Source: Gemmatimonadales bacterium (GTDB lineage: Bacteria; Gemmatimonadota; Gemmatimonadetes; Longimicrobiales; Gaopeijiaceae). Taken from it: DNA of 64,000 bases. Location of the stretch: contig CP070829.1 in assembly GCA_020344755.1 (NCBI GenBank), forward strand, positions 472,973 through 536,972. Reading direction: 5' to 3'. Each line of letters starts with the position of its first letter. Within the stretch, counting starts at the first letter, position 1. The notes beneath the pieces are model-generated. The model was not told the DNA's origin. It was given only the letters and a program-made list of their open reading frames with translations, and made no database searches. The position numbers and the translations under genes were made by a program. This document shows, piece after piece, positions 9,760 through 27,423 of this stretch.

Positions 9760-9848
9760 GACGCCGGGCACCACTCGGCCGAGGGGTCCGTTGCTCAGGG
9801 CGTTCCGCTCAGCGTCAAGCGTCTGCGCGCTGTCCCGGTCCCGCCCCT

Positions 9849-11129
9849 TTAGATTGTCCGCAGCCCCTCGTAGTGCTCCACGAGAGCGTCGCGCAGCACC
9901 TCCTCGAACGCCAAGAGCTCGAACCCGAGCTGGTCCGCCAGCGACTCGGCGAAGCGGCCTCGATGAAAGCAGCGTGCGAAGATGAGTGCCTCGGGCTCCC
10001 GAGCGCGCAACAGCATGGCCGCCCGGAAGTTGACCACCTCGGCGGAGGAGGAGAGCAGGTATACGGGATCGCCGTCCAGACCCGAAAGCTCGTCCCGCAC
10101 GCGAGCCCAGGTTCCCGGATCCTCCAGGTCGCCATCCACGGTGGAGTGGGCCAGGGTGTCCAGGGGGACGTCCGCTTCGAACTGCCGGATCTTCTGTTCC
10201 GCCTCCGCGTCCACGACCAGGATCCGCTCGATCTCGTCTCCCGCGGTGACGCGCAGGAGTTCCAGGATCGTCTGCGCGAATCGGCCGAACCCTCCGAGGA
10301 CGACCACGTCGCGGTATTCCGTTTCCTCGAAGTGTGGATGCAGGAAGCGCTCGTAGAGGTGGAGCGCACCGATGCGGTGGGTGTTGAAGACCAGAGGCTG
10401 GGATCGTCCCGACTTCGCCGCACGGGCCTTCTCGCGGACCATCCGGTTGACGGGCCGCAATAGGCTCAGGTCCGCCACGTGCACCGCGACGGGAAGGGTG
10501 GGACAGCGCTCGGTCGCGCCCCATCCCACGTCGAGGTTCACGAGATCGTCGTCGGTGACGACGATCATCCGCTCCGCCCTCTCCATCCCCAACAGACCGA
10601 GAGTCGCGGGGCGTCGGGCATCTGCGTGCAGGACCTGGACGCCGCCGAAGCGGTCCACCTCGCTCGTGTTGACCAGGCTCTGGAGATGATCCACCAGGAG
10701 CACGGGCGTATCCGGCTCCACTGCGCGGATCGCCTTGAGGTAGGCCAGGCCCACGGGTCCGGCCCCCACCAGGATCACGTGGTCCTGCAGGCTGCTGGCG
10801 TCCCGGGTCTTCGGCCGAAGAAGCCGCAGAACTGCCTCCAGGACCGCGGTGGTGGTGATGGCCGGCGCCAGAAAGTAGGCAACCCACAGGGCTGCGCGGG
10901 CCCAGACCGTCCCCCCGCTCGGGGCACCCAGGTCCAACCCGCCGAATACGAACAAGCCCGCCGCATAGTAGATCCAGGCCAGAATCGGCTCGTCCACAAG
11001 GCTCGCGATGCCGGTGGTCCCCACACCGCTCGCGATGGAGCCCAGCGTCAGCAGGAAGACGAGGATGACCCCCGCCATGCGTACGACGTTCCCGGTCGAT
11101 ACCGGCCGGGTCCGGCGTGGCGTGGTCAT
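9849..11129 (-). CDS. Two-TM channel-like protein with tandem RCK/TrkA-N domains
   Basis: ATG overlaps the upstream stop (ATGA). TM, pore-like WIYYAAGLFVFGGLDLG, TM; HVILVGAGPVG (GxGxxG); second domain VVVLGGFGRFAQ. Confidence 0.72.
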   Translation of the reverse strand: MTTPRRTRPVSTGNVVRMAGVILVFLLTLGSIASGVGTTGIASLVDEPILAWIYYAAGLFVFGGLDLGAPSGGTVWARAALWVAYFLAPAITTTAVLEAVLRLLRPKTRDASSLQDHVILVGAGPVGLAYLKAIRAVEPDTPVLLVDHLQSLVNTSEVDRFGGVQVLHADARRPATLGLLGMERAERMIVVTDDDLVNLDVGWGATERCPTLPVAVHVADLSLLRPVNRMVREKARAAKSGRSQPLVFNTHRIGALHLYERFLHPHFEETEYRDVVVLGGFGRFAQTILELLRVTAGDEIERILVVDAEAEQKIRQFEADVPLDTLAHSTVDGDLEDPGTWARVRDELSGLDGDPVYLLSSSAEVVNFRAAMLLRAREPEALIFARCFHRGRFAESLADQLGFELLAFEEVLRDALVEHYEGLRTI

Positions 11130-12055
11130 TCCTCCGGGCCCGCTTCGCCGCCGGGGCCACTCCGGGTAGACCGAAGGAGCTCCCGGACCCGATCCCGGTG
11201 CTCGCGCCGGACCCCGGCGATGAAGGGCCCCCTGTGACCCACGGGATCGATGGGGTGGCCGGCGAGGTCCACCACCTCCCCTCCGGCACCTCGAACCACG
11301 AGAAGTCCCGCCGCGAGATCCCACGGTGCCGCCTCCGCCGCCTCCCAGAGGTTGACGTAGGTGAAGTGGCCGCGGGCAGCCCCCAGCAGCGCCCACGACG
11401 GCGAACCACCGGGAGCCCGAACCATCCGGACCCGCTTTTCCCTCCACCCCTCCATCAGGGTGTCCAGGGCGTGCCCCGCGTGTCGGGCGGGATGGACGTT
11501 CACCAATACCGGCGACGCTTCGCCCGCGGCCTGGGGAAGATCCACGCCCTGGTGACCCTCGCCGAAGACGTCCAGACGAAGGAGCCGGCTCCTTTCGCCG
11601 GTGACGGCATAGCCAACCTCGCCCGTCAGTGGGCTCGCGATGAGCCCGATCCGGGGCTCGCCGTCTTCAAAGATGGTCATCACGCTGGCGAAGGTCTCCG
11701 TGTGACCGAGGTAGGCGTAGGTGCCATCGATGGGGTCGAGGACGACCGTCCATCCGGCCTCTTCCAGGCTTCCCCCGGTCTCCTCTCCCAGGAACGAGGC
11801 CCCCGGTGCGAAGTCCTTCAGCGCCCGGCGCACCAGGGCTTCGATCTCGGATTCCAGCACCGTGGTGGGGGATCCATCCGCCTTCACCTTGGAGACCGCC
11901 GCGTGCTCCGCCAGAAGTCGGATCCTCCCCGCCACCGACAGCAGGGCCTGCAACCCGAACTGCACCCAGGAATCGTCATCCAGGCTCCCCGGGGGCATGG
12001 ACTCTCCCGTCCGCGCCCGGGCCAGCGCATCTCGCTCCCGAAGCTGCAGGCTCAT
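11126..12055 (-). CDS. Inositol monophosphatase (FIG) family phosphatase
   Basis: FLGEE, VLDPIDGT and WDLAAG motifs; start 5 nt after the upstream stop. Confidence 0.88.
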   Translation of the reverse strand: MSLQLRERDALARARTGESMPPGSLDDDSWVQFGLQALLSVAGRIRLLAEHAAVSKVKADGSPTTVLESEIEALVRRALKDFAPGASFLGEETGGSLEEAGWTVVLDPIDGTYAYLGHTETFASVMTIFEDGEPRIGLIASPLTGEVGYAVTGERSRLLRLDVFGEGHQGVDLPQAAGEASPVLVNVHPARHAGHALDTLMEGWREKRVRMVRAPGGSPSWALLGAARGHFTYVNLWEAAEAAPWDLAAGLLVVRGAGGEVVDLAGHPIDPVGHRGPFIAGVRREHRDRVRELLRSTRSGPGGEAGPEE

Positions 12056-12060
12056 GGAGC

Positions 12061-14631
12061 TCACCCGGTCCTCGAGAGGAGGCGCTCGGCCACGTCGCCG
12101 GCGACCCGCCCTTCGTCGAGGGCCCGGGTCAGCCCCCGCTGGACCGCCTCGGCCTGGCCCGGAGGGATGCGGTTCAGCGTGGACGCATCCAGGGTCCACC
12201 ATTCCAGCTCCTCGAAATCACCCACGGGCTCGAAGAGATCCGGCACGGTCTCCTCCTCGCCGTCGAGAAGGTACTCCCGTACTTCGACCCAGGCGTGATC
12301 CGTCTGTCGCGGGTCGTAGGCATAGCCCTCATGGAGGTGTTCGATGCGACCACGTGGCCGCCACCCTGTCTCCCGCTCCATGACCCGCACGAGGCCCTGG
12401 TCGGAATCCTCGTCCGGAAGAAGGAATCCCTTCGGCAGTTCCAGCAGTGTCTCTCCCTCCCTGGAGCCCAGGAGGATCTCCAGGTCGCCGGTGACGGCAC
12501 TGGTCCGGAACACGACGCCCAACACCGAGGCATTGGCCCCCCAGAGGCCCAGGAGCCCTCGACCCGCCAGGCCGGTACGGCCCCTGGGGTTGAGGGGCCG
12601 GCCCTCCTCGTCGCGGAATCGCGCCGGTCGCTCCTTCAGCTCCCCCGGGTCCATCTCTTCCGGATCCGCCCACCCCGCGGGGTCCCGGTCCCGGCCCGCC
12701 GCCACCACCGAGGAATCCACGTGGTAGGGCGGGTCGTACCCTTCGCAGTCCAGGACCCAGAGCGACTCGTCGATGGAGATCCGTTGCCGGGGTGGGTAGG
12801 TGGCAGGCCGCTCGGCCCGGATCTTCAGGTGGAAGTCGTCCGCCACGAGGTTCAGGGCGATGGACTCGCACGACGAGAGGGCATAGGCCAACTGGGTCTC
12901 ATCGCACTCCCCGCGATCCCTGCGCTTGTCGAAGCTCAGCGTGTGCATGGCGTACCGCAGCAGCGCGACCCGGTACACGAGCCACTCGTCCTCCGCCTTC
13001 AGGGAGAAGCACTTCTGTCGAATGAGCCGGACCGTCGACAGGATCTTCCGGAAGCGCAGATCCCACTTGGCGAACTTCAGGGACTCGGGCAGCTCGTCGG
13101 CCGCCGCCGGAATCCGTTGATTCTGGAGGTACTCCTCGAATGCGCTCAGGCGGGGCAGGTCCTCCGGGTCGAAGGCCTTGCTCATGACGAACTTCACGTC
13201 GTTCTCGAGCTTGGCGAAATCCAGCTCCACGGGATGAACCGCGCTGTGGGTCCAGTCGATGAACCACACGTTGTCCCCGTCGTCGCAGATCACGTTGGCG
13301 AAGTTGAGGTCGCCATGCTGCAGGCATACCTCCGCAGGGATGGAGTCGGGGTTCCGTGCGACCAGCCGGATGACACTCGCCAACTGATCCAGGTCCACGT
13401 GCTCTTCCGTGAACCCGGACTCGGCCAGGTATCGGTGAATCAGGGTGCCGTTCTCCCGTAGCCAGACGAGCTGCTGCTCCGATTGAAGGCCCAGAGCACG
13501 AAACGGAGCGACCTGGCTTCTCTCCAGGGTGTTCTCGTAGAGCCGGCCGACCAGCAGGTCCAGGGATTTCTCGAATCGAATGAGAAAGTGCCGGATCGCG
13601 GCCTCGCTGTCTGCTTCCTCGAAGTGGTCCTGTAGGGTCACCGGCCGGCCCTCCATGGCGGCCAGCTCCATCCCCACCCCCAGGAGGTCCCCTTCGACCA
13701 CCGGGTAGCCGAAGGTGGGCACGTGCTTCCCGAGGAAGTCCTTGACCTGGTGGTATCCGTCCAGCTCGCGCCGCATCTGGGAGAAGTCGTCGATCTTGAT
13801 GACCATGGGCTCGGTGCGAGCCTCCCCCTTCCATCCATCCGCCAGGAAGAGCAGGCTGCCGCTGAAGCCACCGGCCAGGGCGCGGAGATGGGTCCGGGTC
13901 CAGTGCATGCAGATGAGCTGGACGATGCGCTGGGCATCCGGAGACATGCGCCCGCGGGCCTCCTCCGGTTCGATCCGGCAGGGCTGCCCGCTGGACGGGT
14001 CCACGTGGTTGGGATCGACCCCCGCCCACCGCGCTGCGGACTCCAGGTCCAGCACCACCTCCACCCCGGAACGGGGGAGATTGTGGCGCAGGGTGGCGAA
14101 GTGAGCCTCGGACGTGGCACTGCCCACCAGGTGGGGACAGACCGCCACACGCTCGAAACCGAGGACGGTGCGAAGGAACATGGCGATGGTCTGCACACGC
14201 TTCTCCGTGTGGCACCCCACCACCAGGAACTCCACGTCCGCCGATCCGGAACGCACCGTTTCCGCATCCACTGAAGCCGCACTCGCAATCGCCTCGATCA
14301 GCTCTCTCCAGGCGATCCGACCACGAGGGCAGGGAACCACGGCGGCTCCGGCCAGGAGGTCCTCCAGAGGCTCGACCCATTCGGCGAGCATTCCCTCGCC
14401 GGCGGATTCCTCCCCGCCTGCAACGGGATCCTCACGCAGGAGGATCACGCCGGCTCCGGTGGCATCCACCGCGGCTCGGAGCAGCTTCGGGAGCGGACCC
14501 TCGCCGTAGCGTCGCCCCCGCCCCATCAACCGGGCGATCTCTCCGGCTCCCAGGTTCGACGGGATGCCGTGGAATTGCCTCTCGGGGCTCAGGGCTCCCC
14601 GGACCAGGCTGTCTGCGATCACGATGTTCAT
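12061..14631 (-). CDS. Three-domain protein: isochorismatase-like / APH-type kinase / NUDT9-like ADP-ribose pyrophosphatase domain
   Basis: IVIAD and FLVVGCHTEKRV (cysteine-hydrolase-like); GGFSGS, VIKID, HGDLNFANV, WFIDW (kinase); YDPPY, WADP, NPRGRTGLAGRGLLGLWG, GYAYDPRQTDHAWVE (NUDT9 signature). Confidence 0.8.
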   Translation of the reverse strand: MNIVIADSLVRGALSPERQFHGIPSNLGAGEIARLMGRGRRYGEGPLPKLLRAAVDATGAGVILLREDPVAGGEESAGEGMLAEWVEPLEDLLAGAAVVPCPRGRIAWRELIEAIASAASVDAETVRSGSADVEFLVVGCHTEKRVQTIAMFLRTVLGFERVAVCPHLVGSATSEAHFATLRHNLPRSGVEVVLDLESAARWAGVDPNHVDPSSGQPCRIEPEEARGRMSPDAQRIVQLICMHWTRTHLRALAGGFSGSLLFLADGWKGEARTEPMVIKIDDFSQMRRELDGYHQVKDFLGKHVPTFGYPVVEGDLLGVGMELAAMEGRPVTLQDHFEEADSEAAIRHFLIRFEKSLDLLVGRLYENTLERSQVAPFRALGLQSEQQLVWLRENGTLIHRYLAESGFTEEHVDLDQLASVIRLVARNPDSIPAEVCLQHGDLNFANVICDDGDNVWFIDWTHSAVHPVELDFAKLENDVKFVMSKAFDPEDLPRLSAFEEYLQNQRIPAAADELPESLKFAKWDLRFRKILSTVRLIRQKCFSLKAEDEWLVYRVALLRYAMHTLSFDKRRDRGECDETQLAYALSSCESIALNLVADDFHLKIRAERPATYPPRQRISIDESLWVLDCEGYDPPYHVDSSVVAAGRDRDPAGWADPEEMDPGELKERPARFRDEEGRPLNPRGRTGLAGRGLLGLWGANASVLGVVFRTSAVTGDLEILLGSREGETLLELPKGFLLPDEDSDQGLVRVMERETGWRPRGRIEHLHEGYAYDPRQTDHAWVEVREYLLDGEEETVPDLFEPVGDFEELEWWTLDASTLNRIPPGQAEAVQRGLTRALDEGRVAGDVAERLLSRTG

Positions 14632-14640
14632 GGACGATCC

Positions 14641-16053
14641 CTAGAGAATGCAACCGGCGGAGACCAGCTCTTCGAGCTTGGCCGACTTGGTCGAGGCGAC
14701 CTCCTTGAGCACCCCGCGGAATTCCGGATAGTCCCCACGAAGCCGTTCGAAGTCGCCGGTGGACAGAAAGAAGACGTCGCTGTGCGTCGTGGCCTGCACC
14801 GAGCCGGTGCGTCGTTCGCCCAGCAGGAGCGACAGGTCTCCGAAATAGTCCCCGGCCTCGAGTCCGCCCAGGTGGCGGGCGCCTCCCTCCATGGTGATGG
14901 TCAGCTTCCCGCTGCTCACGAAATAGACGCCCGTGGCCACCTCCCCCTCCCGAACCACGAAGCTCCCGGGGACGAAGACCAGGGGTTGGAGCGACATGAG
15001 CAGAGCGTTTCGCAGGGCGGGCTCGGCGTGGCGGAAGAGGGGCACCTTCTCGATGAGCTCCCGCGTGAGATGGAAGACGACCTCGAGCCGGATGGGGTCC
15101 GGCAGGTCACGCAGGAACTGCTGGGTGCTCGACCCGCGATATCGCTCCCAGATGTACTCGTAGTAGTCCCGGATCTGACGCTGGAGAGGTTCAGGAAGGG
15201 CGCGGCTGCGCAAGTACTGGCTGACTCCGTCCGCCCGGTCCCAGAAGGCCGTCTTCGCTGCGTCGATGGAGCTCACCAGGGAGGCGATGCTCCCGATGAT
15301 GAGCGCGTACATGGAGGCCCCCAGCACCATCACCAGGATGGTGAAGGCATACTCCGCATTCCGCGTCGGCACGATGTCGCCGAAGCCCACCGTGGTGGTG
15401 GTGACGAAACCCCAGTAGAGGGAGCGCAGGTACTGGCTCCCCCGGTCCAACCCGTCGATCCCCGCTGCCACGGTCCAGGAGTCCCGGGGGAATCCTTCCA
15501 CCACCGCCACGAGGAACCACCCGCACGCGATCCAGTGGATCAGCAGGAACACGCCGATCACCAGCTTGCTGATCCTCAGGTAGCCCGTGTTGGTGCTGTG
15601 CAGGCGCTCCCACTGGCGGAACGCGCGGAGGAGGCGTTGGAGCCGAAGGAGCCGGGTCGTACGGAGCAGGAGCACCACCGGCACCCCCGCCACCGCGGCG
15701 CTCGACATCAGGAAGAGGGCATCCAACGGGACGACCCCAAGAAGGTCGGCGGAGAACCCGGACCGACGGTATCGGCGGACCACGGCCGCCGATTCGGTGA
15801 CCTCGCTGCCTCCCGCGCGAAAGGTCGTCCGGAAGTTCAGGAAGATGTCCGCAACGAAGAGGACATCCAGGAGGTACACGAGAAGGCTACCGCCGAGATC
15901 GACCTCCCGCACGAAGACGATCTGGAAGGGGACCACCAGCCCCGTCACCACCACGGCCAGGACGATGACGAGGTCCCACGCCGTTCTGAAGGTCGAGCGT
16001 TCCGGGATCAGGGGCACCGGCGGAGGGATGGCTTGGGCAGCCGCTCCGCTCAA
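14641..16053 (-). CDS. 6TM voltage-sensor K+ channel with C-linker and cyclic-nucleotide-binding domain
   Basis: TTG start overlapping the rsbV stop (TTGA) with a GGAGGG RBS; S4 LLRTTRLLRLQRLLR; filter TTVGFGDIVP; CNBD GDYFGDLSLL...RTGSV. Confidence 0.9.
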   Translation of the reverse strand: MSGAAAQAIPPPVPLIPERSTFRTAWDLVIVLAVVVTGLVVPFQIVFVREVDLGGSLLVYLLDVLFVADIFLNFRTTFRAGGSEVTESAAVVRRYRRSGFSADLLGVVPLDALFLMSSAAVAGVPVVLLLRTTRLLRLQRLLRAFRQWERLHSTNTGYLRISKLVIGVFLLIHWIACGWFLVAVVEGFPRDSWTVAAGIDGLDRGSQYLRSLYWGFVTTTTVGFGDIVPTRNAEYAFTILVMVLGASMYALIIGSIASLVSSIDAAKTAFWDRADGVSQYLRSRALPEPLQRQIRDYYEYIWERYRGSSTQQFLRDLPDPIRLEVVFHLTRELIEKVPLFRHAEPALRNALLMSLQPLVFVPGSFVVREGEVATGVYFVSSGKLTITMEGGARHLGGLEAGDYFGDLSLLLGERRTGSVQATTHSDVFFLSTGDFERLRGDYPEFRGVLKEVASTKSAKLEELVSAGCIL

Positions 16054-16382
16054 AAGCCCTCCAGCGCCTCGGCTTCGGACGGGAAGACCGCGAAGATGGT
16101 ACTGAAGCCGGAGATCTCGAAGACCTCGGCCACCGTCTCGTTCAGCCCGCACAGCCGCAGGTTGCCGCCTCCGCCGCGCAACTTCTTCGCCGTGGCCAGG
16201 AGGACCCGAAGGCCGGCGCTGGAGATGTAGTCCAGGTCGGAGAAGTCCACCAGGACCTTCACGGTTCCGGCCCCTATCAGGTCGTCGAGGGCCTCCTGCG
16301 CTTCGGGGGCCGTATTGGTGTCGAGATTGCCCTCGAACCGGACCACGGCGACACCGTCCTGCTCATCGTGTGAGATCTTCAC
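16050..16382 (-). CDS. rsbV: STAS-domain anti-sigma factor antagonist (RsbV/SpoIIAA-like)
   Basis: EGNLDTNTAP, VDFSDLDYISSAGLRVLL with the phospho-Ser retained, EVFEISGF. Confidence 0.88.
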   Translation of the reverse strand: MKISHDEQDGVAVVRFEGNLDTNTAPEAQEALDDLIGAGTVKVLVDFSDLDYISSAGLRVLLATAKKLRGGGGNLRLCGLNETVAEVFEISGFSTIFAVFPSEAEALEGF

Positions 16383-18088
16383 GTCTGCTCCTCGGTTGGT
16401 TCATTCGCCCCACCTTCGTGAGACAGGTACTTGACCAGCACGACCACATTCCGGTCGGTGCGCCGGGTATACGACGCCTCGTCCATGAGATTCTGGACCA
16501 GGTGGATTCCGAGTCCACCGATCTCGCGCTCTTCCAGCTCGAGCGCAGTGTCGGGCGAACTGCGGCCAAATGGATTGAAGGGATGCCCGTCGTCACTGAT
16601 GCGCACCGCGAGGCGATCGGGCGACAACTCGACTCGCACCTCGATGAGGTGCTCGGCCTCATCCTTGTAGGCATAGGAGATGACGTTGTTGAGGAGATCG
16701 TCGAAGACCAGCTTCATGCTACGGCGGACCTTCTCGGGCATTCCGTAGGCTGAAGCGAACTCGTCGAACGACCGGTTCACTCTCTCGATTTCCTCATACC
16801 GGTTCCCGACTTCGAGCTCCAGGACGTGCATCCCGGCAGCCCCACCCTCCCGGCCGGTGAACTGGACAGCCAGCACCGTCACGTCATCCGCCTGCTCCGC
16901 CTCGGCCTGGAACTTCCAGACGTCCTCGGTGGAGGCGGCCACGAGCTCTTCTACGGAGCCGTAGGCACGCGCTTCCAGGACGCGCACCAGGCGATCTTCC
17001 TCGTACAATGCCCCCGCGGGATCCATGGCCTCCGTGACGCCGTCCGTGTAGACGAAGAGGAAATCGCCGGACTGCAGCGACTCGGCGTCCTCCCCGTAGA
17101 CCAGTCCGTCCACGGCTCCCACCACGGGCCCGTGCCGAATCGCCAATCGTACCACCTCACCCGACGCGCGTCGCAGGTAGGGTGGATTGTGGCCGGCGTT
17201 GCAGTACGACAACTCGCCCGTCGTCACGTCCAGGATCCCCAGCCACAAGGTCACGAACATGGCCGAGTCGTTGTTCTCGGAGATCTCGTCGTTGACGTGC
17301 GTGAGGATGCTTGCCGGAGAGAAGTCGTTGGTCGCCCTGGACTTGATGAGGGTCTTCGTGACGGCCATGAAGAGGGCCGCCGGCACTCCCTTTCCGGACA
17401 CGTCTCCCACACAGAAGCAGAAGCGGTCCTCGTCGATGAGGAAGAAGTCGTAGAAGTCCCCGCCCACCTCGCGGGCAGGCTCCAGCGTGGCGAAGACGGT
17501 GAATTCGTTGCGGTGGGGGAAGGGGGGGAACTTCAGCGGGAGCATACTCATCTGAATGTCCCGGCCGATGTTCAGCTCGCTTTCCATCCGCTCCTTCGCC
17601 GTCGTCGTGCGACGCAGGTTGTCGAAGGATTCCTGAAGTTCCTGGTTCTTGACCGTGAGCTCCCGCATCAGGGCGTCGCGCCCCTTCTCTTCCACGGCGT
17701 CCCGCAGCTCGCGCTGACGGTGCGACTGCCTCGCCTGCGCCTCGATGTGGGGAAGGTGAAGGCTCATCCGGACGCTGGGCTCCCCGTCGACGCGCACGAT
17801 GTGCACGGCATCGAAGAATGCCTCTGCCACGGAGTGGTCCATTCGCCCACCCACGCCCACCAGGTCCAGCACGAACTCCGGTTCGGTCCCGTCCAGGCTC
17901 AGGTGCACGTCGATGCGACCGACCTGCTCGATGCGGTTGGCCGCCCTGAAAAGCTCGGAGGTGACGGCCGCGATCCGCGTGGCGAGCATCGGATCGCTGG
18001 TCAGGTCCTGCAGGAGCCTTCGGATCTTGCCCCGTGCCTCGGGAACCGAGCCCTCGGCTCCACCCAGGATCGTCCCGAGATCGATCAC
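16379..18088 (-). CDS. SpoIIE/PP2C phosphatase (RsbU-like) fused to a C-terminal HATPase (RsbW-like)
   Basis: ESELNIGRDIQMSMLP, VGGDFYDF, GDVSGKGVPAALFM, YTDGVTEA, DDVT; then NVISYAY, DDGHPFNP, GGLGIHLV. Confidence 0.9.
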   Translation of the reverse strand: MIDLGTILGGAEGSVPEARGKIRRLLQDLTSDPMLATRIAAVTSELFRAANRIEQVGRIDVHLSLDGTEPEFVLDLVGVGGRMDHSVAEAFFDAVHIVRVDGEPSVRMSLHLPHIEAQARQSHRQRELRDAVEEKGRDALMRELTVKNQELQESFDNLRRTTTAKERMESELNIGRDIQMSMLPLKFPPFPHRNEFTVFATLEPAREVGGDFYDFFLIDEDRFCFCVGDVSGKGVPAALFMAVTKTLIKSRATNDFSPASILTHVNDEISENNDSAMFVTLWLGILDVTTGELSYCNAGHNPPYLRRASGEVVRLAIRHGPVVGAVDGLVYGEDAESLQSGDFLFVYTDGVTEAMDPAGALYEEDRLVRVLEARAYGSVEELVAASTEDVWKFQAEAEQADDVTVLAVQFTGREGGAAGMHVLELEVGNRYEEIERVNRSFDEFASAYGMPEKVRRSMKLVFDDLLNNVISYAYKDEAEHLIEVRVELSPDRLAVRISDDGHPFNPFGRSSPDTALELEEREIGGLGIHLVQNLMDEASYTRRTDRNVVVLVKYLSHEGGANEPTEEQT

Positions 18089-20575: not shown

Positions 20576-20632
20576 GGATTCCTCACGTTGGCTTCTCGAT
20601 TTCCGGGCCGGGGGCACGTTCATTCGGTTCCA

Positions 20633-22504
20633 TCAGTCGGCTTCCCCCGTGGCGACCTCGATGGCGTCCCTCAGTGACCGGGCCGTGGCGATTCCCGACA
20701 TGGTTTCGGGGTGGTCGGCCAGATCGGCGGCGAGTTGGGGACGCAAGCCGGACAAGATCACCTTGGCGCCCATGAGCCGAGCCGCCTGGGCTACCAGGGC
20801 CAGCTCGTCCGCCACCTCGGGATCCAACCGGGACACCCCTGTAAGGTCGACGATGACGCAGCGATCCCCTCGTTCGTGCAGGCGGTGGGTGAGAGAGTCG
20901 CGGATCCGCTGACACCGGGACCGGTCGAGCTCTCCCACCAGGGGGAGCACCACCACGTCGTCGTGTATGGGGATCAGCGGGGTGGAGAGGGCCTCGATGG
21001 ACCTGTTCTGACGGTCGATCAGGTCGCGCAGCGACACGCGCATGGACTCGAAGCTCCGGGCCAGGTCCCCCACCTCGTCCCCACGGTTCATGTCCACGGG
21101 CTGATCCAGCTCACCGCCGGCCAGGGCGTTCGCCGTGACCGACAGGGCCTGGATGGGCCGAACGAGATTGCCAGAGAACCAGTAGGCCAGGAGAGCGAGA
21201 AGGGGGATGAGGACCACCAACGCGACCGCCATTCGACGACCGAGTGTTCCGACGGCGGACATGGCCTCGGCGACGTCGATCTCGCTCATGATCACCCAGT
21301 TCAGGTCCTGGATGTCCAGGGGCCGGAATGCCGAAAACACCTCCACGTCGCGGTAGTCCCTGAAACGGGACTCGCCGGTCTCACCGGCGAGGGCCCGGCT
21401 CACGCCTTCCGTGCGGGCGGGCTGAAGTCCCACCGCACTCTCCTGGGCCTCGATGGATCGCACGACGGTCTCGTCGATCCCGGCCGCCCGGATCGCGGCG
21501 AGATATCCTTCCCGCTCCTCGATGAGGAATCGAGACTCCGTCCGCAGCGTCTCGTCCGGTCCCACCAGGTAGGCCTCTCCCGTCTCTCCGAAGCCCACGG
21601 ACCGCCACGCGCCTCCACTGGTCATGGTCTCGTTGATCCGGCTCAGTGGCATCTGGAAGACCAGGGCTCCCAGGACCTCGCCCTCCTCCACGACGGGGGA
21701 GGCAATGAAGGAGGCCGGGGCTCCGTAAGAGGGAAGATAGGGACGGAAGTCTACGAGCCGAGCGTCGGACGCTGCGGGGAACCCCATCGCCGCCGCGGAG
21801 ACGTCGGCGAGACTGGACTGGCGGTGGGGCCCCGCCGAGAGAGAGGTCCCGAAGTCCACCTCCTTGAAGACGGAGTAGACGATCCGGAGGTCGGTAGCGC
21901 TCACCAGGAAGAGATCGTAGTAGCCGAATCGCTCCAGGAACTGTCGAAGGAGCGGGTGGTAGCGCGCGTGGGCCTCGTCGTAGCGGGTACCCGCATCCGA
22001 AGCGTCCAGGAGGTGCTTGAAATCCAGGGCGTAGGGGTTGTCGCCGATGTAGAGGTGCTGCAGCGACAGGGCCACCGGGTCCTCGGGCCAGTACCGCGAC
22101 AGGGGCCCCGGATCGTCCACGCTGGCCTCGAGTCGGGGATAGAACTCGTTCTGATAGTGGACTCTGACTTCACGTTCCACGTCCGGGGCGGACAGCTGCC
22201 TCGCTGCGAGTTCCTGCTCCAGCGTCGCGGTGGCCGCCGAGAACTCCCGTAGGGCCGCGACCACCATCCGGTCCTCCGAGAGCGTCACCAACTGGTCGCG
22301 AATCGTCTGGAAATAGTCCTCGATCTGTTGGCCCTTGAGCTCCCGTGCTGCGGTGAGTTGGTCGATGGCCTGCTGCTCCAGGGTGCGGACCCCGAGCCGG
22401 TACGACACGACAGCCATCGTGCCGATGGACACCAGCGTGACCAGCGCCAGGACCGAGAGCACCCGGACCCGGATCGATCGGTCACGCTCGAAGGAGCCGA
22501 ACAT
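20633..22504 (-). CDS. Membrane-anchored RsbR paralogue (TM-dCache-like-TM-HAMP-STAS)
   Basis: Two TM segments around a large extracytoplasmic domain (GYYDLFL, DFRPYLPSYGAPASFIASP, GETGEAYLVG); HAMP RGDEVGDLARSF; STAS LSTPLIP...LSGLRP. Confidence 0.85.
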   Translation of the reverse strand: MFGSFERDRSIRVRVLSVLALVTLVSIGTMAVVSYRLGVRTLEQQAIDQLTAARELKGQQIEDYFQTIRDQLVTLSEDRMVVAALREFSAATATLEQELAARQLSAPDVEREVRVHYQNEFYPRLEASVDDPGPLSRYWPEDPVALSLQHLYIGDNPYALDFKHLLDASDAGTRYDEAHARYHPLLRQFLERFGYYDLFLVSATDLRIVYSVFKEVDFGTSLSAGPHRQSSLADVSAAAMGFPAASDARLVDFRPYLPSYGAPASFIASPVVEEGEVLGALVFQMPLSRINETMTSGGAWRSVGFGETGEAYLVGPDETLRTESRFLIEEREGYLAAIRAAGIDETVVRSIEAQESAVGLQPARTEGVSRALAGETGESRFRDYRDVEVFSAFRPLDIQDLNWVIMSEIDVAEAMSAVGTLGRRMAVALVVLIPLLALLAYWFSGNLVRPIQALSVTANALAGGELDQPVDMNRGDEVGDLARSFESMRVSLRDLIDRQNRSIEALSTPLIPIHDDVVVLPLVGELDRSRCQRIRDSLTHRLHERGDRCVIVDLTGVSRLDPEVADELALVAQAARLMGAKVILSGLRPQLAADLADHPETMSGIATARSLRDAIEVATGEAD

Positions 22505-22516
22505 CCGAGCGACGGC

Positions 22517-22918
22517 TCAGACCCGGTCCACCCGGACGCGACCCGCGGGCAGGGTCACGTACCAGACCGGCTCCGTAATCACCGATTCCACCGGGTAGAG
22601 AAGGCCGTCCTGGTCGAGGACGTCACCCAGCCGCACCGCGACGGTCACCCGTCCCTGGTCGCGCCACTGGCTGTCGGGCCGGAGGGCGAATGCGACCCCC
22701 GGGCCGACCTGGCTCGCCACCGTGCCGTACCCCCCACCGTAGACGTCCACCACGGCCTCCGACGGATCCGGATTCGCCGACATCCACCACCCTCCCGAGG
22801 ACTCGTCGAGCTCGAGGAAGTCTTCCAGCGTAGCTCGGTACAACACCGTTTCGGCGTCGAGACCGTGGGCCTCCAGGGTCTCCGAGAGGATTCGTTCCGT
22901 TTCGGGTTCGTGTGGCAT
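22517..22918 (-). CDS. Hypothetical protein (133 aa)
   Basis: Fills the gap between flotillin and the membrane RsbR, 12 nt from the next start; GC3-rich codons. Confidence 0.7.
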   Translation of the reverse strand: MPHEPETERILSETLEAHGLDAETVLYRATLEDFLELDESSGGWWMSANPDPSEAVVDVYGGGYGTVASQVGPGVAFALRPDSQWRDQGRVTVAVRLGDVLDQDGLLYPVESVITEPVWYVTLPAGRVRVDRV

Positions 22919-22984
22919 GGTCGATGGGCTCGGGGCAGCGCAGACGGCGACAGCCGTGATAATGGCGATACGACTGCAGGGGCG

Positions 22985-24286
22985 CTAATCCAGCTCCTTG
23001 GGAAGATCGCCAGCCTCCTTGGCCCCACCACCCGACCCCAGCCGGGCCAGGTCCACCCCCGTGGCGTTCTTCATCTGTTCCATCATGCTGACCGCCGATC
23101 CCGTGAGGTTGCGGACGTAGTTGGGGAGCCCCTCTCCACCGGCGTCTCCGCCGCCATCGAGGATCGTGAGCTTGTCGATGCGGAGGTTCTCCGCGACTAC
23201 GCGGGTGACCTTGTCCACCAGATCCGGGAACATGCGGATCATGAAGAGATCCTGGGTCGCCCCACCGTCCCACTCTTCCCGCATGAGGTGGACGGCCTCG
23301 GCCGTGGCCCGTCCCTCCTCACGAATCCGCGCCGCCCGTCCCTCGGCCTCGAGCCGGTCGGCTTCGGACCGCGCCCGCGCGGGAATGATGGTGTCCGCCG
23401 AGTGGCGCTTCTCGCTGAGTTCCGCCCGGCGAGACTCCAGGTCGACTTCCCGGTCCACGCGGGCGATTCGCCCTGCGACCTCCGCGCGCTCGCGCGCCTC
23501 GTTGGTCTCGGCTTGGAGGTTTGCACGCTCCACCTCCAGGGCGTTCTCCTTCTCGATCACCTGGCGCTCCGCCGCGATCTCCGCCTCCCGACCGAGGCGC
23601 TTCTGCTCCGCGGACACCTGCCGTGCTTCGGCGTCCGCCTGGGCCTCGGCGATGCGGGCGTCCCGCTGAACCTCCGCGTTCCGCTTGCGCCCGATGGCCT
23701 CCAGATATCCCGCCTCGTCCGAGAGATCCTGGATCTGGAAGAAGTCCAGGACGATGCCCAGTCCCGAGAGCTCCCCGCGCGCCCTCGCGGTGACCTCCTG
23801 CGCCAGATCGAGGCGACGCTCGTTGGCCTCCTCCGGGCTCACGCCGGCAATGACACCCCGGAGCGCGCCTTCGAGCACCTGCTGGGCAGTCTTGTCGATG
23901 GCCTCGACCCCCTTGCCCAGGAACCGCTCGATGCCTGCCTCCAGCCCCTCGTCCTCTCGGCCCGCCAGCTTCACATTCGCCTTCCCCTCGATGTCCACGG
24001 GAATCATCCCGCGGCACAGCGCCTTGTGGGGCCGGACCTGCACGGTTCGGGTAGTGAGTGGGAGCCGCATGGCCGACTCCAGGAGGGGCCATTTGAATCC
24101 CCGCCCCCCCCGAATCAGGCGATAGCCCACCACGGTTCCATCCTGGGTCTTTCGCTTGCGACCCGAGATGATCACCACCTCGTTGGGCTGGCAGATCACG
24201 ATGTTGGCCTTGATGAAGATCACCAGGGCCAGGATTCCAAAGGCCCCGATCCCGAGATAGATCCCGATCAGCTGTGCTTGGTCCAT
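22985..24286 (-). CDS. Flotillin / SPFH (band 7) protein
   Basis: N-terminal TM, PNEVVIISGR, LEGALRGVIA, IQDLSDEAGYLEAIGRKRNAEV, Ala/Glu-rich coiled coil. Confidence 0.9.
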   Translation of the reverse strand: MDQAQLIGIYLGIGAFGILALVIFIKANIVICQPNEVVIISGRKRKTQDGTVVGYRLIRGGRGFKWPLLESAMRLPLTTRTVQVRPHKALCRGMIPVDIEGKANVKLAGREDEGLEAGIERFLGKGVEAIDKTAQQVLEGALRGVIAGVSPEEANERRLDLAQEVTARARGELSGLGIVLDFFQIQDLSDEAGYLEAIGRKRNAEVQRDARIAEAQADAEARQVSAEQKRLGREAEIAAERQVIEKENALEVERANLQAETNEARERAEVAGRIARVDREVDLESRRAELSEKRHSADTIIPARARSEADRLEAEGRAARIREEGRATAEAVHLMREEWDGGATQDLFMIRMFPDLVDKVTRVVAENLRIDKLTILDGGGDAGGEGLPNYVRNLTGSAVSMMEQMKNATGVDLARLGSGGGAKEAGDLPKELD

Positions 24287-24306
24287 GATGAGCCCTTCGG
24301 AAACGG

Positions 24307-25743
24307 CTACGTGTTGAAGTAGAGGGAGAACTCGCCCGGGTGCGGTCGAAGCCGGACGAAATCGATCTCGTTCTGACGCTTGTATTCGACCCAGGTCTCG
24401 ATGAGGTCGGGCGTGAAGACGCCGTCCTGCACCAGGAAGTCGTGGTCGGCCTCGAGCGCGGTGATGGCCTCGTCCAGCGAACCGGGTGTCCGCTCGATGT
24501 CGGCGCCCGCCCCGCTGGCCGCCAACTCGTAGATGTCTTCGTCCACCGGGTCGGGCGGCTCGATGCGTCTGCGAACCCCGTCGATCCCCGCACACATGAT
24601 GGCGGCGAAGCTCAGGTAGGGATTACACGACGGATCGGGCGTGCGAAACTCGATGCGTTTCGACTTCGGTCCCCCGGTCATGGTGGGGATGCGAATGCAG
24701 GCGCTCCGGTTCCGACCCGAGTAGAGGAGGTTCATGGGCGCCTCATAGCCCGGCACCAACCGCCGGTACGAATTGGTGGTCGGGCAGCAGATCCCGCACA
24801 AGGCCCGCGCGTGGGCCAGCAGCCCTCCGACGAAGTGCAGGGCCACCTCGCTGAGATCACCGTAGCGGCCCGCCTCGTAGAAGACGTTCCGTCCGTCTTT
24901 GGACAGGCTGATGTTGTGGTGCATTCCCGATCCGTTCTCCTGCAGGAGCGGCTTGGGCATGAACGTCGCCGTCTTCCCGAACCGGTTCACGACGTTCTTC
25001 ACCACGTACTTGTACTTGATGGCCGCATCGGCCTGCTGCAGGAGGGGCCCGAAACGGAAGCCGATCTCGCACTGGCCGGCCGCACCGACCTCGTGATGAT
25101 GCAACTCCGGCTGCAGCCCCACCTTCTTCAGGACGTGCGAAATCTTGGACCGGAGGTTGTTGTACTGGTCCACCGGCGGGGCCGAGAAGTACGCCCCCCG
25201 CTGGGCGGCCCGGTGTCCCAGGTTCGGGTCGTCTCCCTTCTCGCCGGTGGACCACGACGCCGCAGAGCTATTCAGGAAGAAGTACCCGTGCTGCGTGGCC
25301 TGGTCGAAGCGTACGTCGTCGAAGATGAAGAACTCGATCTCCGGGCCGAAGTACGCCGTGTCGGCGATCCCCAGCGAACGCAACAGGACCTCCGCCCGCC
25401 GCGCCACGGACCGTGGATCCCGGGAGAAGGTGTAGCGCCCGTTGGGGTCCACGATGTCGCAGAACACCGAGAGCGCCGGATCATCGAAGAAAGGGTCCGC
25501 GAAGACGGATGCGGGATCCGGAATCAGGAGCATGTCGCTCTGGTTGATCCGCGTGAATCCCCGGACCGACGACCCGTCGAAGGCCATCCCGTTCCGGAAG
25601 AGCGCCTCGTCCACCATCTCCGCAGGCAGGGTGAGATGCTGGAGGGTCCCCAGGAGGTCCACGAACTTCAGGTCCAGGAATTCGATCCCCTCGTCGTTGA
25701 TCCTGCGAACCACGTCTCGCGCGCTGGTGGGGCGATTCGGCAT
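24307..25743 (-). CDS. glnA: Glutamine synthetase type I
   Basis: FDGSSVRGF, FGPEIEFF, HHEVGAAGQCE, TFMPKP...NGSGMHH, RLVPGYEAP, NRSACIRIP, RIEFRTPDP; adenylylation Tyr retained in DIYEL. Confidence 0.97.
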   Translation of the reverse strand: MPNRPTSARDVVRRINDEGIEFLDLKFVDLLGTLQHLTLPAEMVDEALFRNGMAFDGSSVRGFTRINQSDMLLIPDPASVFADPFFDDPALSVFCDIVDPNGRYTFSRDPRSVARRAEVLLRSLGIADTAYFGPEIEFFIFDDVRFDQATQHGYFFLNSSAASWSTGEKGDDPNLGHRAAQRGAYFSAPPVDQYNNLRSKISHVLKKVGLQPELHHHEVGAAGQCEIGFRFGPLLQQADAAIKYKYVVKNVVNRFGKTATFMPKPLLQENGSGMHHNISLSKDGRNVFYEAGRYGDLSEVALHFVGGLLAHARALCGICCPTTNSYRRLVPGYEAPMNLLYSGRNRSACIRIPTMTGGPKSKRIEFRTPDPSCNPYLSFAAIMCAGIDGVRRRIEPPDPVDEDIYELAASGAGADIERTPGSLDEAITALEADHDFLVQDGVFTPDLIETWVEYKRQNEIDFVRLRPHPGEFSLYFNT

Positions 25744-25759
25744 GGTCGGCTCCCCTCTC

Positions 25760-26095
25760 CTAGTACAGCGCCCGCGAGCCGCGCTCGCCGGTCCACACCG
25801 TGACCACGTCGTGGAGCTCCGAGACGAAGATCTTCCCCCACCCCCCTGTCTCCATACACCCGCCGGTGATGGCCTCGATGGCGCGCTCCAGCACGGCATC
25901 GTTCACTGCCAGCTCCAGGCGAACACGCTTGAGGAGGGAGACCTCCTTCTTCACGCCCCGGAACATCTGCTGCTCGGTCCGCGGGGCGGTGCCCATGACC
26001 GAGGTGGCCGTCATGTGCCGGATCTCCGCGTCGAACAGGGCCTGCTTCACCGCCGGCAGCTGCTCGGGCTTGATGACGGCAACGATCATTTTCAT
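25760..26095 (-). CDS. glnK: P-II family nitrogen regulator, atypical
   Basis: MKMIVAVIKP, FRG, GKIFV and TGE give PII length and fold; between amtB and glnA; several signature residues are substituted. Confidence 0.82.
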   Translation of the reverse strand: MKMIVAVIKPEQLPAVKQALFDAEIRHMTATSVMGTAPRTEQQMFRGVKKEVSLLKRVRLELAVNDAVLERAIEAITGGCMETGGWGKIFVSELHDVVTVWTGERGSRALY

Positions 26096-26112
26096 TCGCG
26101 AGTCTCCCGAGC

Positions 26113-27423
26113 CTACTCGGTAGTGAAGATCTGGAATCCAGCGTACGACTCGATGCCGTGCTCGTCGATGTCGAGGCCCCGCAACTCGGTCTCGTGCGAG
26201 ACCCGAAGCCCCAGCACCGAGTCGATGGCCTTGAAGACGATCCACATGGCGACGGCGGTGAAGCCGAGGGCCGCCACGACGCCCAGCATCTGGACGCCCA
26301 GGGCACCGAATCCGCCACCCATGAACAGCCCGTCGGCCGACGCCCCGTACGCCTCGCGGCCCCAGAGCCCCACGGCCAGCGTACCGAAGACGCCGCAGAG
26401 GCCGTGGACCGCCACCGCCCCCACCGGGTCGTCCACCCGCAGGGCGTCAATCCAGGCGATGCCGTAGATGCACAGCACCCCGGCGATCGCTCCAATGAAG
26501 AGCGCGGCTCCCGGGCCGACGGCTGCACACGGGGCCGTGATGGCCACCAACCCCGCGAGGGCTCCGTTCAAGGCGAGCATCAGGTCCGGCTTCCCGTAAC
26601 GGATCCAACTGGTCACCATTGCCGTGACGGTCGCGATGGACGGAGCCAGGGTCGTGTTGATCGCAACCCGGGCCACCACGTCCGGCTCCCCCATGCCCAG
26701 CGTGGAGCCCGCGTTGAAGCCGTACCACCCGAACCAGAGGATGAAGACCCCCAACGACGCGAGCGGGAGGCTGTGGCCGCCAATGGCGTTGGGGGAGCCG
26801 TCGGCGTTGAACTTCCCGTACCGGGGACCGAGTACCCATGCCCCGACCAGACCGCTGACGCCGCCCACGGCATGAACCACCGTGGATCCCGCGAAGTCGT
26901 GGAAGCCGATGTCGGCCAGCCATCCCCCGCCCCACACCCAGTGCCCGACGATGGGATAGATGAAGGCGGACAGGATGAAGGAGTACGCCAGGTAGGAGGT
27001 GAACTTCATCCGCTCCGCCACCGCCCCGGCGACGATGGTGGCTGCCGCTCCCGCGAAGACGGCCTGGAAGAGCCAGAAGGCCTCGACGGGAACGCCTTCC
27101 ACCGGTGACTCGGCGCCGGCGAGAAACCACCCCTCGGTGCCGAAGAGCAGCCCCTGCGTGCCGTACATGATGGCGTAGCCAAAGATGAAATAGCCCAGGG
27201 CGGCGAAGGCAAAGTCCAGGAGGTTCTTCATCAGGACGTTGCCCGCGTTCTTGGTACGGACCAGCCCGGCTTCCAGAACACTGAACCCCGCCTGCATGAA
27301 GAACACCAGGATGGCCGCGATCAGGATCCAGAGGGTGTCCAGGGCATTCAAGGCGGCAGCGTCCTGGACCCTGGCAACCAGGGCCGATACGGCCGGGATC
27401 ACGTCGGGGAATGCAGAGCCCAT
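26113..27423 (-). CDS. amtB: Ammonium transporter
   Basis: FFMQAGF, DFAGSTVVHAVGG, LWFGWYGFNAGS, GALAGLVAITA, DDPVGAVAVHG (twin His). Confidence 0.96.
   Translation of the reverse strand: MGSAFPDVIPAVSALVARVQDAAALNALDTLWILIAAILVFFMQAGFSVLEAGLVRTKNAGNVLMKNLLDFAFAALGYFIFGYAIMYGTQGLLFGTEGWFLAGAESPVEGVPVEAFWLFQAVFAGAAATIVAGAVAERMKFTSYLAYSFILSAFIYPIVGHWVWGGGWLADIGFHDFAGSTVVHAVGGVSGLVGAWVLGPRYGKFNADGSPNAIGGHSLPLASLGVFILWFGWYGFNAGSTLGMGEPDVVARVAINTTLAPSIATVTAMVTSWIRYGKPDLMLALNGALAGLVAITAPCAAVGPGAALFIGAIAGVLCIYGIAWIDALRVDDPVGAVAVHGLCGVFGTLAVGLWGREAYGASADGLFMGGGFGALGVQMLGVVAALGFTAVAMWIVFKAIDSVLGLRVSHETELRGLDIDEHGIESYAGFQIFTTE

Follow-up and report, generated by a model that had tools for sequence, protein, structure and literature searches.

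A kinase/NUDT9-homology protein and its phosphatase partner in a multi-phylum cassette, with a probable Gemmatimonadota elaboration that adds a stressosome to ammonium assimilation and cation transport genes

We analysed a 64,000-nucleotide stretch of about 68% GC (hereafter the window; contig CP070829.1, positions 472,973 to 536,972, assembly GCA_020344755.1) from the 4.1-Mb single-contig genome of a Longimicrobiales-like member of the Gemmatimonadota. Fifteen consecutive genes on its minus strand (9849-27423) had been proposed, from the sequence, to form one new operon joining nitrogen assimilation, a stressosome without a sigma factor, two ion channels and a kinase linked to NAD/ADP-ribose (the original prediction). 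The conserved core of this block is a near-invariant pair of genes, encoding an 856-residue protein that combines a kinase with a NUDT9-homology domain (NUDT9H), and a phosphatase of the inositol monophosphatase family (IMPase). We hold with moderate confidence that the whole block works as a single system for signalling and transport, in which the Gemmatimonadota have elaborated a cassette found in several phyla.

The gene run and the list of gaps given in the original prediction were reproduced exactly by open reading frame (ORF) listing, by frame analysis using GC content at third codon positions, which backs the frames, and by measurement of the junctions. From the first gene, amtB, to the last, which carries a TrkA_N domain, the junctions measure 17, 16, 20, 66, 12, 57, -4, -4, -4, -4, -4, 9, 5 and -4 nt; the overlapping ones have the form xTGA, and the start codons are GTG, TTG or ATG. 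Chance would hardly place fifteen genes in one direction with no gap above 66 nt; the run is far beyond that expectation. The domains assigned in the original prediction were all upheld by Pfam.

With the 856-residue protein as anchor, we obtained 18 loci from a scan of one genome per species, 77 more from a profile scan of metagenomes, and three annotated megabase-scale contigs by look-up. The 15 window proteins were searched by tblastn against 97 related loci, and presence was counted on the 23 loci whose flanks measure at least 8 kb (the long loci). Conservation of the gene neighbourhood, proposed as a check of the original prediction, was indeed found, the core linkage recurring in about 100 loci from at least five phyla, which include Gemmatimonadota, Planctomycetota, Armatimonadota (Fimbriimonadia), Desulfobacterota (Desulfobacteraceae), Myxococcota (Myxococcales) and others. 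An IMPase gene is present in 21/23 long loci, rsbV or a PP2C/RsbW gene in 19/23, an ion transporter of any kind in 19/23, and AmtB, PII or a glutamine synthetase (GS) in 15/23; a flotillin occurs in 8/23, a channel with a cyclic-nucleotide-binding domain (CNBD) in 6/23, the small gene unk133 described below in 6/23 and a stressosome in 3/23.

The full arrangement from glnA to the RCK gene was seen in six metagenome-assembled genomes (MAGs) of Gemmatimonadota (L005, L006, L008, L009, L016 and L025). A Fimbriimonadia MAG (L017) carries the flotillin, both RsbR proteins, RsbS, RsbT-PP2C, PP2C-RsbW, RsbV, a transporter and the kinase; a Phycisphaerales MAG (L019) has AmtB-PII-GlnA-flotillin-PP2C-RsbV-kinase-IMPase, a Desulfobacteraceae MAG (L014) has PP2C/RsbW-RsbV-kinase-IMPase, and the three megabase-scale contigs, which are unclassified (L022-L024), read AmtB-PII-GlnA-Band_7-(RsbW)-STAS-kinase/NUDT9H-IMPase. 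The linkage survives reordering; some loci have the IMPase gene ahead of the kinase gene, and in others amtB is encoded on the opposite strand or comes after the IMPase gene. On a maximum likelihood tree of the kinase protein, loci linked to nitrogen genes fall in at least nine separate clades; those linked to a stressosome form one Gemmatimonadota clade, to which the Fimbriimonadia locus has to be added, since its truncated kinase gene was left off the tree. What held of the proposal that the 15 genes are one system is therefore the association of AmtB/PII/GS, flotillin, switch, kinase and IMPase, which recurs across phyla and survives rearrangement, whereas the full 15-gene unit is a lineage-specific elaboration. 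Clustering of the neighbourhoods revealed further recurring neighbours, among them Na+/H+-exchanger-TrkA_N proteins (13 loci), SulP-STAS-CNBD proteins, hybrid kinases and Hpt proteins, and receiver proteins. In one of the unclassified contigs (L023; ERZ28763718 ctg125597), glnA is split into Gln-synt_N and Gln-synt_C ORFs and three copies of a DDE transposase lie around STAS-kinase-IMPase; this copy of the cassette appears to be decaying.

The core gene (12061-14631, minus strand) encodes an isochorismatase-like domain, an APH/TCAD9 kinase domain and NUDT9H (Pfam TCAD9 at 92 bits, APH and NUDIX). The kinase domain also matches the choline-kinase and RIO families, and its motifs (GGFSGS, the lysine of VxKID, HGDLNxxNxICD and DNVWFIDWTH) are unchanged in homologues; it is predicted to be intact and active. 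The C-terminal part aligns with human NUDT9 (1q33) over residues 603-709 and 766-811 (E 7e-13) and also matches the NUDT9-H domain of TRPM2. Foldseek searches with the AlphaFold2 (AF2) model of the protein returned Nudix domains, NUDT9, the TRPM2 chanzyme and the ADP-ribose-binding domain of NrtR, and the precomputed annotation of one homologue (P0030) includes PF25969, NUDT9_N. Both the cap and the Nudix fold of NUDT9 are present, and the motifs GRTG.AGRG.LG.WG.N and YD.RQTDHAW are kept in nearly all homologues of the core protein. The catalytic Nudix box has the consensus GX5EX7REUXEEXGU, and in place of REUxEE the window protein reads RVMERE and all 14 aligned homologues R[VI][ML]xxE. With so degenerate a box, NUDT9H is probably a ligand sensor and not a hydrolase.

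Residues 1-235 of the core protein had no direct Pfam match, and the best 50 Foldseek matches of the whole 856-residue model were all to Nudix domains, with none for the N-terminal fold, which AF2 models as an alpha/beta domain with high pLDDT. We call this region isochorismatase-like because a paralogue in one of the unclassified contigs (L022:12615-14924), which aligns to core residues 2-569 at E 1e-29, matches PF00857 Isochorismatase at E 1.2e-8. In the window protein and in homologues, the VVGCHTEKRV segment of the core N-terminal domain has Arg or Lys at what we take to be the place of the catalytic Cys in the TDxC motif of isochorismatases and nicotinamidases. The core protein would then consist of two apparently catalytically dead domains of NAD-metabolite type on either side of an intact kinase.

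The core family comprises at least 379 clusters at 90% identity in public data; at 50% identity there are 88 representatives at E<=1e-30, roughly 20 of them full length among those listed. Its members are named in the sources only as 'ADP-ribose pyrophosphatase', 'NUDIX domain-containing protein' or 'phosphotransferase', and the first of these labels is unlikely to be right given the degenerate Nudix box. A short core protein corresponding to residues 1-501, without NUDT9H, is encoded in a Myxococcales locus (L020, CP070713.1, 9995-11473), where its gene adjoins genes for a PP2C and a CNBD channel and the nearest 10 kb hold no IMPase gene.

The partner gene (11126-12055, minus strand) encodes a 309-residue protein (Pfam Inositol_P, E 1e-29) that scored below every cut-off of the NCBIfam equivalogs; the metal-binding motifs DPIDGT and WDxAAG are readable in its translation as VLDPIDGT and PWDLAAG. 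It adjoins the kinase/NUDT9H gene in 36 of the 38 loci that extend 1 kb or more to either side, and in 21 of the 23 long loci. The paralogue in L022 joins an isochorismatase domain and a TCAD9 kinase to a C-terminal protein tyrosine/dual-specificity phosphatase (PTP) domain that replaces NUDT9H, and this PTP-bearing protein takes the place of the IMPase, which suggests that a phosphatase partner is needed.

NUDT9 and the NUDT9-H domain of TRPM2 share with the core protein the cap and Nudix core and the conserved GRTG..GRG..WG.N and DPRxTDxAW motifs, and vertebrate TRPM2 also the degenerate Nudix box, which suggests ligand sensing, as in the sensing of ADP-ribose by NrtR. The protein described here is bacterial, and NUDT9H is joined in it neither to a channel nor to a helix-turn-helix domain, its fusion partners being a kinase and an isochorismatase-like domain.

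Upstream of the core gene lie the genes for a set of stressosome and partner-switch proteins, all on the minus strand. Two proteins have the RsbR layout of a variable N-terminal sensor followed by a C-terminal STAS domain, one a 623-residue membrane protein (20633-22504; Pfam dCache_1, HAMP and STAS), the other a 303-residue soluble protein (19664-20575; Pfam Protoglobin, E 6e-30, and STAS). The dCache-HAMP-STAS protein occupies the same position in ten other loci (L005, L006, L008, L009, L016, L017, L025, L112, L114 and L115). A 148-residue single-STAS protein of RsbS type (19221-19667; Pfam STAS) is followed by a 379-residue protein (18085-19224) in which an RsbT-like HATPase kinase (HATPase_c/HATPase_c_2, residues 27-143) is fused to an RsbX-like PP2C (SpoIIE, residues 214-376). 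These genes have the order of an RsbS-RsbT stressosome pair and are joined by 4-nt overlaps, and the two halves of the fusion are separate ORFs in L009. At what we take to be the position of Ser59 in B. subtilis RsbS, the canonical phospho-acceptor, the window protein has Ala and six homologues have A, T, R, P or L. The stressosome thus departs from the textbook form, and stressosomes of this type are probably unable to use phosphorylation of RsbS.

Next comes a 569-residue protein (16379-18088) with an N-terminal domain, a PP2C domain (SpoIIE, E 1.6e-52) and an RsbW-like Ser kinase (HATPase_c_2, E 2.8e-24, with NCBIfam RsbW matches). Its N-terminal domain had no direct Pfam match; by tblastn, residues 1-140 align only in loci that also bear rsbS and rsbT, and this region is therefore best read as the docking input for RsbT. 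In other loci the PP2C has a PAS input, a solute-binding protein (SBP) plus dCache, or a separate GAF/HAMP-PP2C, or comes after Hpt proteins and hybrid kinases. The stressosome taken by the original prediction as the input is thus encoded in this block but is interchangeable across the family, where PAS, GAF, HAMP, SBP+dCache or Hpt/receiver inputs stand in its place. The 110-residue RsbV-type STAS switch protein (16050-16382; Pfam STAS, E 5e-24) carries the phospho-acceptor motif D[YF][IV]SSAGLR, near-invariant in about 45 homologues, and its gene is found in 17 of the 23 well-flanked loci. Both halves of a partner switch, a STAS protein with a phosphorylatable Ser and an RsbW kinase with a PP2C, are accordingly present by their domains.

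What is missing is the usual recipient. No sigma factor is encoded in the window, as originally predicted (all 19 Sigma70_r2 matches of the genome lie elsewhere), and the 863 kb of related loci held no sigma-like ORF, so that no sigma or anti-sigma partner is present at the loci. A second rsbV-like STAS gene with a PP2C nearby lies elsewhere in the genome (G000 C1:838810-841007), with no sigma-factor match close by.

The cascade shares with the RsbRST-RsbU-RsbV/RsbW-sigma B pathway of B. subtilis the sensor-plus-STAS RsbR proteins, RsbS, RsbT, the PP2C with docking domain, the RsbW-type Ser kinase, an RsbV with conserved phospho-serine and an RsbX-like feedback PP2C. In contrast to that pathway, neither this locus nor the related ones encode a sigma factor, RsbW is fused to the PP2C and RsbT to the RsbX-like PP2C, RsbS has no phospho-acceptor Ser, one of the two RsbR proteins is a dCache-HAMP protein of the membrane, and rsbV is followed by channel, kinase/NUDT9H and IMPase genes. 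Stressosomes with outputs other than sigma factors are already documented (PMC4976288), so that the absence of a sigma factor is not the novelty here. In Vibrio and Moorella thermoacetica a diguanylate cyclase or a protein of two-component or CheY-like type serves as output (PMC4976288, PMC9237108), and haem-globin RsbR proteins are O2 sensors of Vibrio stressosomes (PMC4976288). These stressosomes resemble the present one in the haem-type globin RsbR, the lack of sigma B and an output presumed to be another signalling enzyme; they differ in that the candidate output here is the kinase/NUDT9H-IMPase pair and is tied to AmtB-PII-GS-flotillin. A third relative is the HptB-HsbR-HsbA pathway of Pseudomonas, in which HsbR both adds phosphate to the STAS protein HsbA and removes it, and the enzyme HsbD is bound by HsbA~P (PMC5085249). 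The shared features are a PP2C and a Ser kinase on one polypeptide acting on a single STAS protein, relay by that protein to partners other than sigma factors, including an enzyme, and, in L014 and L018, Hpt proteins or hybrid kinases upstream. Unlike in Pseudomonas, the input here is a stressosome-docking domain and not a receiver, FlgM and HsbD are absent, and the likely partner is the kinase/NUDT9H protein. The chain from sensor to PP2C/kinase, STAS protein and non-sigma partner is therefore of a known kind. The novelty lies in the pair that forms the output, in the atypical PII and in the way both are coupled to transporters, flotillin, AmtB and GS; open full-text literature searches gave nothing on this gene combination, in agreement with the original prediction, which knew of no described system so composed.

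The original prediction had suggested that the cascade may control ion flux or membrane potential. Directly after rsbV comes a 470-residue protein resembling CNBD K+ channels (14641-16053, minus strand; Pfam Ion_trans, Ion_trans_2 and cNMP_binding). Its -4-nt junction with rsbV requires a TTG start at 16053, a start supported by the alignments of the L008 and L016 homologues, which begin at residue 1. The last gene of the block (9849-11129, minus strand) encodes a 426-residue membrane protein with a TrkA_N (RCK) domain (E 4.5e-14), which follows the IMPase gene in Gemmatimonadota loci only (4/23). The loci with a CNBD channel are scattered over several clades of the kinase tree. The slot taken by the channel in the window holds a Na_Pi_cotrans protein in L112 (19690-20333) and a Na_H_Exchanger-TrkA_N protein in L017 (7719-9980), which suggests a transporter 'socket' right after rsbV; transporters of other loci are Kef/NhaP-TrkA_N, SulP-STAS-CNBD or Na/Pi proteins, or AmtB itself. 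Ion transporters thus recur as proposed, and control of ion flux by the cascade is plausible on the strength of their presence in 19/23 loci, but the channels are interchangeable accessories and not a fixed direct output. The kinase/NUDT9H protein and the IMPase, which are the genes most constantly linked to rsbV, are the likeliest direct output.

An NAD/ADP-ribose theme also emerges from a small gene upstream of the membrane RsbR, unk133 (133 residues; 22517-22918, minus strand), whose Pfam match to AvrPphF-ORF-2 (E 1.3e-3) is below the cut-off. Its AF2 model (pLDDT 76, pTM 0.72) had a single significant Foldseek match, AvrPphF ORF2 (1s21; E 5e-5, probability 1.0, TMq 0.59), followed weakly by DarT and Tpt1, and the protein is assigned on this basis an ADP-ribosyltransferase (ART) fold of HopF/AvrPphF-ORF2 type, with which the Pfam match agrees. 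Residues R28, D99, S112 and E116 are invariant in an alignment of homologues, and loci from Gemmatimonadota, Planctomycetota and metagenomes keep the gene beside the cassette. Seen with the two predicted sensor domains, one nicotinamidase-like and one NUDT9-like, it would lend coherence to an NAD/ADP-ribose theme of the cassette.

A biological-conflict or anti-phage system, acting through abortive infection or NAD-based immunity, could also be built from a TCAD9 kinase, a Nudix domain, an ART-fold enzyme and channels as effectors. The TCAD9 domain takes its name from conflict systems (the 92-bit match is shared with the MoxR-vWA ternary systems, PF19974), the CNBD matches effector models of Pycsar, and the spread of the cassette is patchy (2/41 relatives). 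In contrast, PADLOC matched only the generic CNBD and none of the other eight proteins, MoxR, vWA, nuclease, TIR and other effector genes are missing from the annotated neighbourhoods, and the flanks of the block are free of mobile-element genes. The neighbours are instead sensory, nitrogen and ion-transport genes, the constant partners being AmtB, PII, GS, flotillin and sensory domains, and we consider a role in conflict highly improbable.

The block opens with the nitrogen genes, all on the minus strand. The first, amtB (26113-27423), is the sole copy in the genome by tblastn and encodes a 436-residue ammonium transporter (Pfam Ammonium_transp, E 2.8e-127) that clears the NCBIfam 'amt' subfamily cut-off; it is linked to the kinase/NUDT9H gene in 11/23 well-flanked loci. 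As in AmtB-GlnK pairs, a PII gene follows directly after the 17-nt gap (25760-26095; 111 residues). The PII protein is atypical (hereafter PII*), with a weak Pfam P-II match of 67 bits and an NCBIfam GlnB/GlnK score of 59 bits against a cut-off of 181. Its T-loop reads GTAPRTEQQMFRGVKKE and lacks the canonical GxGRQKG...Y51 pattern of what we take to be the E. coli GlnB reference. The PII proteins of the cassettes form a distinct subfamily, with the T-loop GTAP[RK]xEQ..[YF]RG and the C-terminal motif VWTGxRG; their alignment shows no equivalent of Tyr51 or Ser49. Besides the window protein, members were found in L007, L019, L022-L024, L045, L057, L069, L073 and L112-L115. The subfamily is widespread in metagenomes: a threshold of E<=1e-15 gives 205 clusters, and 128 index blocks list one and the same member.

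The third gene (24307-25743) encodes a type I GS (GSI) of 478 residues, an NCBIfam GlnA type I equivalog (591 bits, cut-off 429) that is an accessory copy, every sampled member of the genus, including this genome (C1:1614067), having a GSIII-type enzyme. Among 41 relatives, the GSI of this block is present only in this genome and in one other (G004), and PII* only in the two genomes that also bear the kinase/NUDT9H gene. The nitrogen genes are thus accessory and specific to the cassette, and a housekeeping amtB-glnK-glnA operon was rejected on these grounds. In G004, the closest relative, PII and glnA (C32:321-2106) are 99-100% identical to those of this genome, and the kinase, IMPase, channel and RCK genes on its contig C51 are 71-84% identical (84% for the kinase contig). 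Seven loci (L042, L049, L050, L051, L056, L069 and L073) are variants without a full-length glnA, in which a short GS-like protein of about 354 residues (Gln-synt_N and a partial Gln-synt_C) adjoins the core kinase gene. The fourth gene of the block (22985-24286) encodes a 433-residue flotillin-like SPFH/Band_7 protein (Pfam Band_7; 172 bits against NCBIfam FloT-like, under the cut-off), which comes after glnA in L007, L019, L022, L023, L045, L057 and L112-L115.

The association was also approached from the opposite end, starting from four PII* homologues of 65-71% identity, picked mainly for contigs of at least 20 kb (L112-L115). All four lie in AmtB-PII*-GlnA-Band_7 arrangements that continue into the switch: three with the whole stressosome and one with an SBP-PAS-PP2C-RsbW sensor next to the CNBD channel and kinase/NUDT9H genes.

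The nitrogen genes recall AmtB-GlnK, and the control of nitrogenase by ADP-ribosylation through AmtB/PII/DraG-DraT, in the order of amtB and PII genes and in the theme of ADP-ribose linked to PII, which is represented here by the ART-fold protein and the predicted sensor domain of ADP-ribose type. In contrast to these systems, the PII T-loop is non-canonical, GSI and flotillin are included, and DraT, DraG and nitrogenase are absent.

The kinase might act not on a small molecule but as a protein kinase on PII*, GS, AmtB or the transporters of the same cassette, with NUDT9H and the isochorismatase-like domain reporting NAD/ADP-ribose and the IMPase working separately, for instance on an osmolyte or inositol phosphate. 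PII proteins are controlled by modification of the T-loop in other bacteria, TCAD9 belongs to the superfamily of protein-kinase-like folds, and the protein that replaces the IMPase in L022 carries a PTP/dual-specificity domain typical of protein phosphatases. Sequencing runs that hold the window sequence, moreover, come from estuary, mangrove and sediment samples, where osmolyte control matters. Opposed to these points are the matches of the kinase to the APH, choline-kinase and RIO families, the near-obligate partnership with an IMPase, a family that to our knowledge acts on small-molecule substrates only, and the absence from PII* of the canonical modifiable Tyr or Ser. We regard this version as possible but doubtful.

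Transcription bears on whether the block works as a unit. Metatranscriptome contigs from sediment and soil samples with 0-6 mismatches to the window, which are undirected and may include DNA, bridge amtB-PII-glnA (25522-26187), glnA-flotillin (24186-24377), rsbS-rsbT (19124-19319) and channel-kinase (14516-14703). One contig (27357-27507) extends beyond the amtB start by 84 nt or more on the upstream side, into the probable promoter/5'-untranslated region between amtB and the divergent gene (27424-27660), which was delimited by reading the sequence. A consensus scan of the block found no sigma-70-like promoter sites, and terminator-like hairpins were fewer in it than in shuffled sequences, a result that neither supports nor refutes internal transcription units; Rfam detected no riboswitch, leader or other element in 9000-29000. 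The block is thus operon-like by its gaps and by the RNA over several junctions; among the contigs listed none bridges the 66-nt or the 57-nt gap, and co-transcription of all 15 genes is therefore a prediction.

The block is flanked by unrelated genes, on one side those for a peptidase S9, an EF-hand protein and a convergent PD40-amidohydrolase, and on the other a divergent small ORF and a Ser/Thr kinase gene. The EF-hand protein (5701-6375; 224 residues, several EF-hand motifs) lies between the peptidase and the amidohydrolase, the latter (6535-9759, downstream of the block) has many paralogues, and the Ser/Thr kinase with PD40 repeats (28235-30874, upstream of the block) has at least 44 in the 4.1-Mb genome. 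With flanking genes drawn from such large paralogous families, and with 'same genus' genomes too divergent for clear orthologues, comparison of the flanks within the genus is uninformative as to whether the 17.6-kb block was inserted as a discrete unit.

Several observations weigh against a single cooperating system. Modules can separate, since 4/23 long loci have no visible partner switch and 8/23 no nitrogen genes, and many of the loci come from related MAGs, which makes the counts partly dependent on one another. The RNA support for one transcript is thin, since none of the listed contigs crosses the gap of 66 nt or that of 57 nt. Two sigma factors of the genome that are not the primary one have region 3; each is encoded more than 190 kb from the block, and either might in principle be bound by the RsbW domain. 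The near-identical PII/glnA contig of G004 may have been mis-binned, or the nitrogen module may have been transferred recently. Finally, every step past gene linkage is inferred. The block could be a mosaic in which an ordinary amtB-glnK-glnA operon adjoins a switch for a distal sigma or anti-sigma factor and a pair of NAD/ADP-ribose salvage genes with channels, the modules being transferred together horizontally without cooperating. Such a mosaic would agree with the loci that have lost one module, with the fall of the two largest gaps between modules, with the RNA depth, which is greatest over amtB through flotillin and lower downstream, with the two region-3 sigma factors and with the second rsbV-like/PP2C pair at C1:838810-841007. 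It is difficult to reconcile with a linkage that persists over at least five phyla, at kinase identities down to 40% and in several gene orders, with a PII subfamily specific to the cassette and an accessory GSI that co-occurs with the kinase gene, or with the presence of the switch in 4/4 PII*-anchored loci. Likewise, rsbV overlaps the next gene by 4 nt, no sigma gene was found in the 863 kb of related loci, and a salvage hydrolase is unlikely given the degenerate Nudix box. We judge the mosaic unlikely and favour one cooperating system.

In the system that we propose, O2 or another gas sensed by the globin RsbR, and a periplasmic ligand sensed by the dCache RsbR, would act on a stressosome holding RsbT-PP2C. 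Freed RsbT would dock on the N-terminal domain of PP2C-RsbW and tip it from kinase to phosphatase; the phosphorylation of RsbV would change, and RsbV would move to or from the kinase/NUDT9H protein, for which the binding of HsbA to HsbD is a precedent. The kinase may also be gated by an NAD-derived ligand such as ADP-ribose, possibly a product of the small ART-fold protein, and together with the opposing IMPase it would determine how much of a phosphorylated product, be it a small molecule or a protein, is present. The resulting signal would tune ammonium uptake and assimilation (AmtB, PII*, GS) and the flux of K+ or other cations (CNBD, RCK) at membrane sites organised by flotillin. In the cell's physiology the system probably serves homeostasis of ions, osmotic balance and nitrogen in saline sediments, a role that fits the estuary, mangrove and sediment origin of the runs holding the sequence. 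A more specific version, which we consider improbable, is that the kinase/NUDT9H protein and the IMPase make and break a novel phosphorylated messenger derived from NAD/ADP-ribose, licensed by RsbV and by ADP-ribose or nicotinamide released by the ART-fold protein, and read by PII* and by the CNBD and RCK domains of the linked channels and transporters. If true, an ADP-ribose-type second messenger would couple stress sensing to NH4+/K+ flux and glutamine synthesis, as a prokaryotic counterpart of the gating of TRPM2 by ADP-ribose.

Partner switches and stressosomes are common outside the Firmicutes, where their outputs are mostly obscure. The cassette, whose family is common in sediment and marine metagenomes, offers a conserved candidate for such an output, a ligand-gated kinase with its own phosphatase, tied to nitrogen assimilation through an atypical PII family, to flotillin microdomains and to cation transport. 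It also places sensor domains of NUDT9-homology type, which are otherwise known from TRPM2, in a bacterial setting, and gives a hint that control of ammonium metabolism based on ADP-ribose may extend beyond DraT/DraG.

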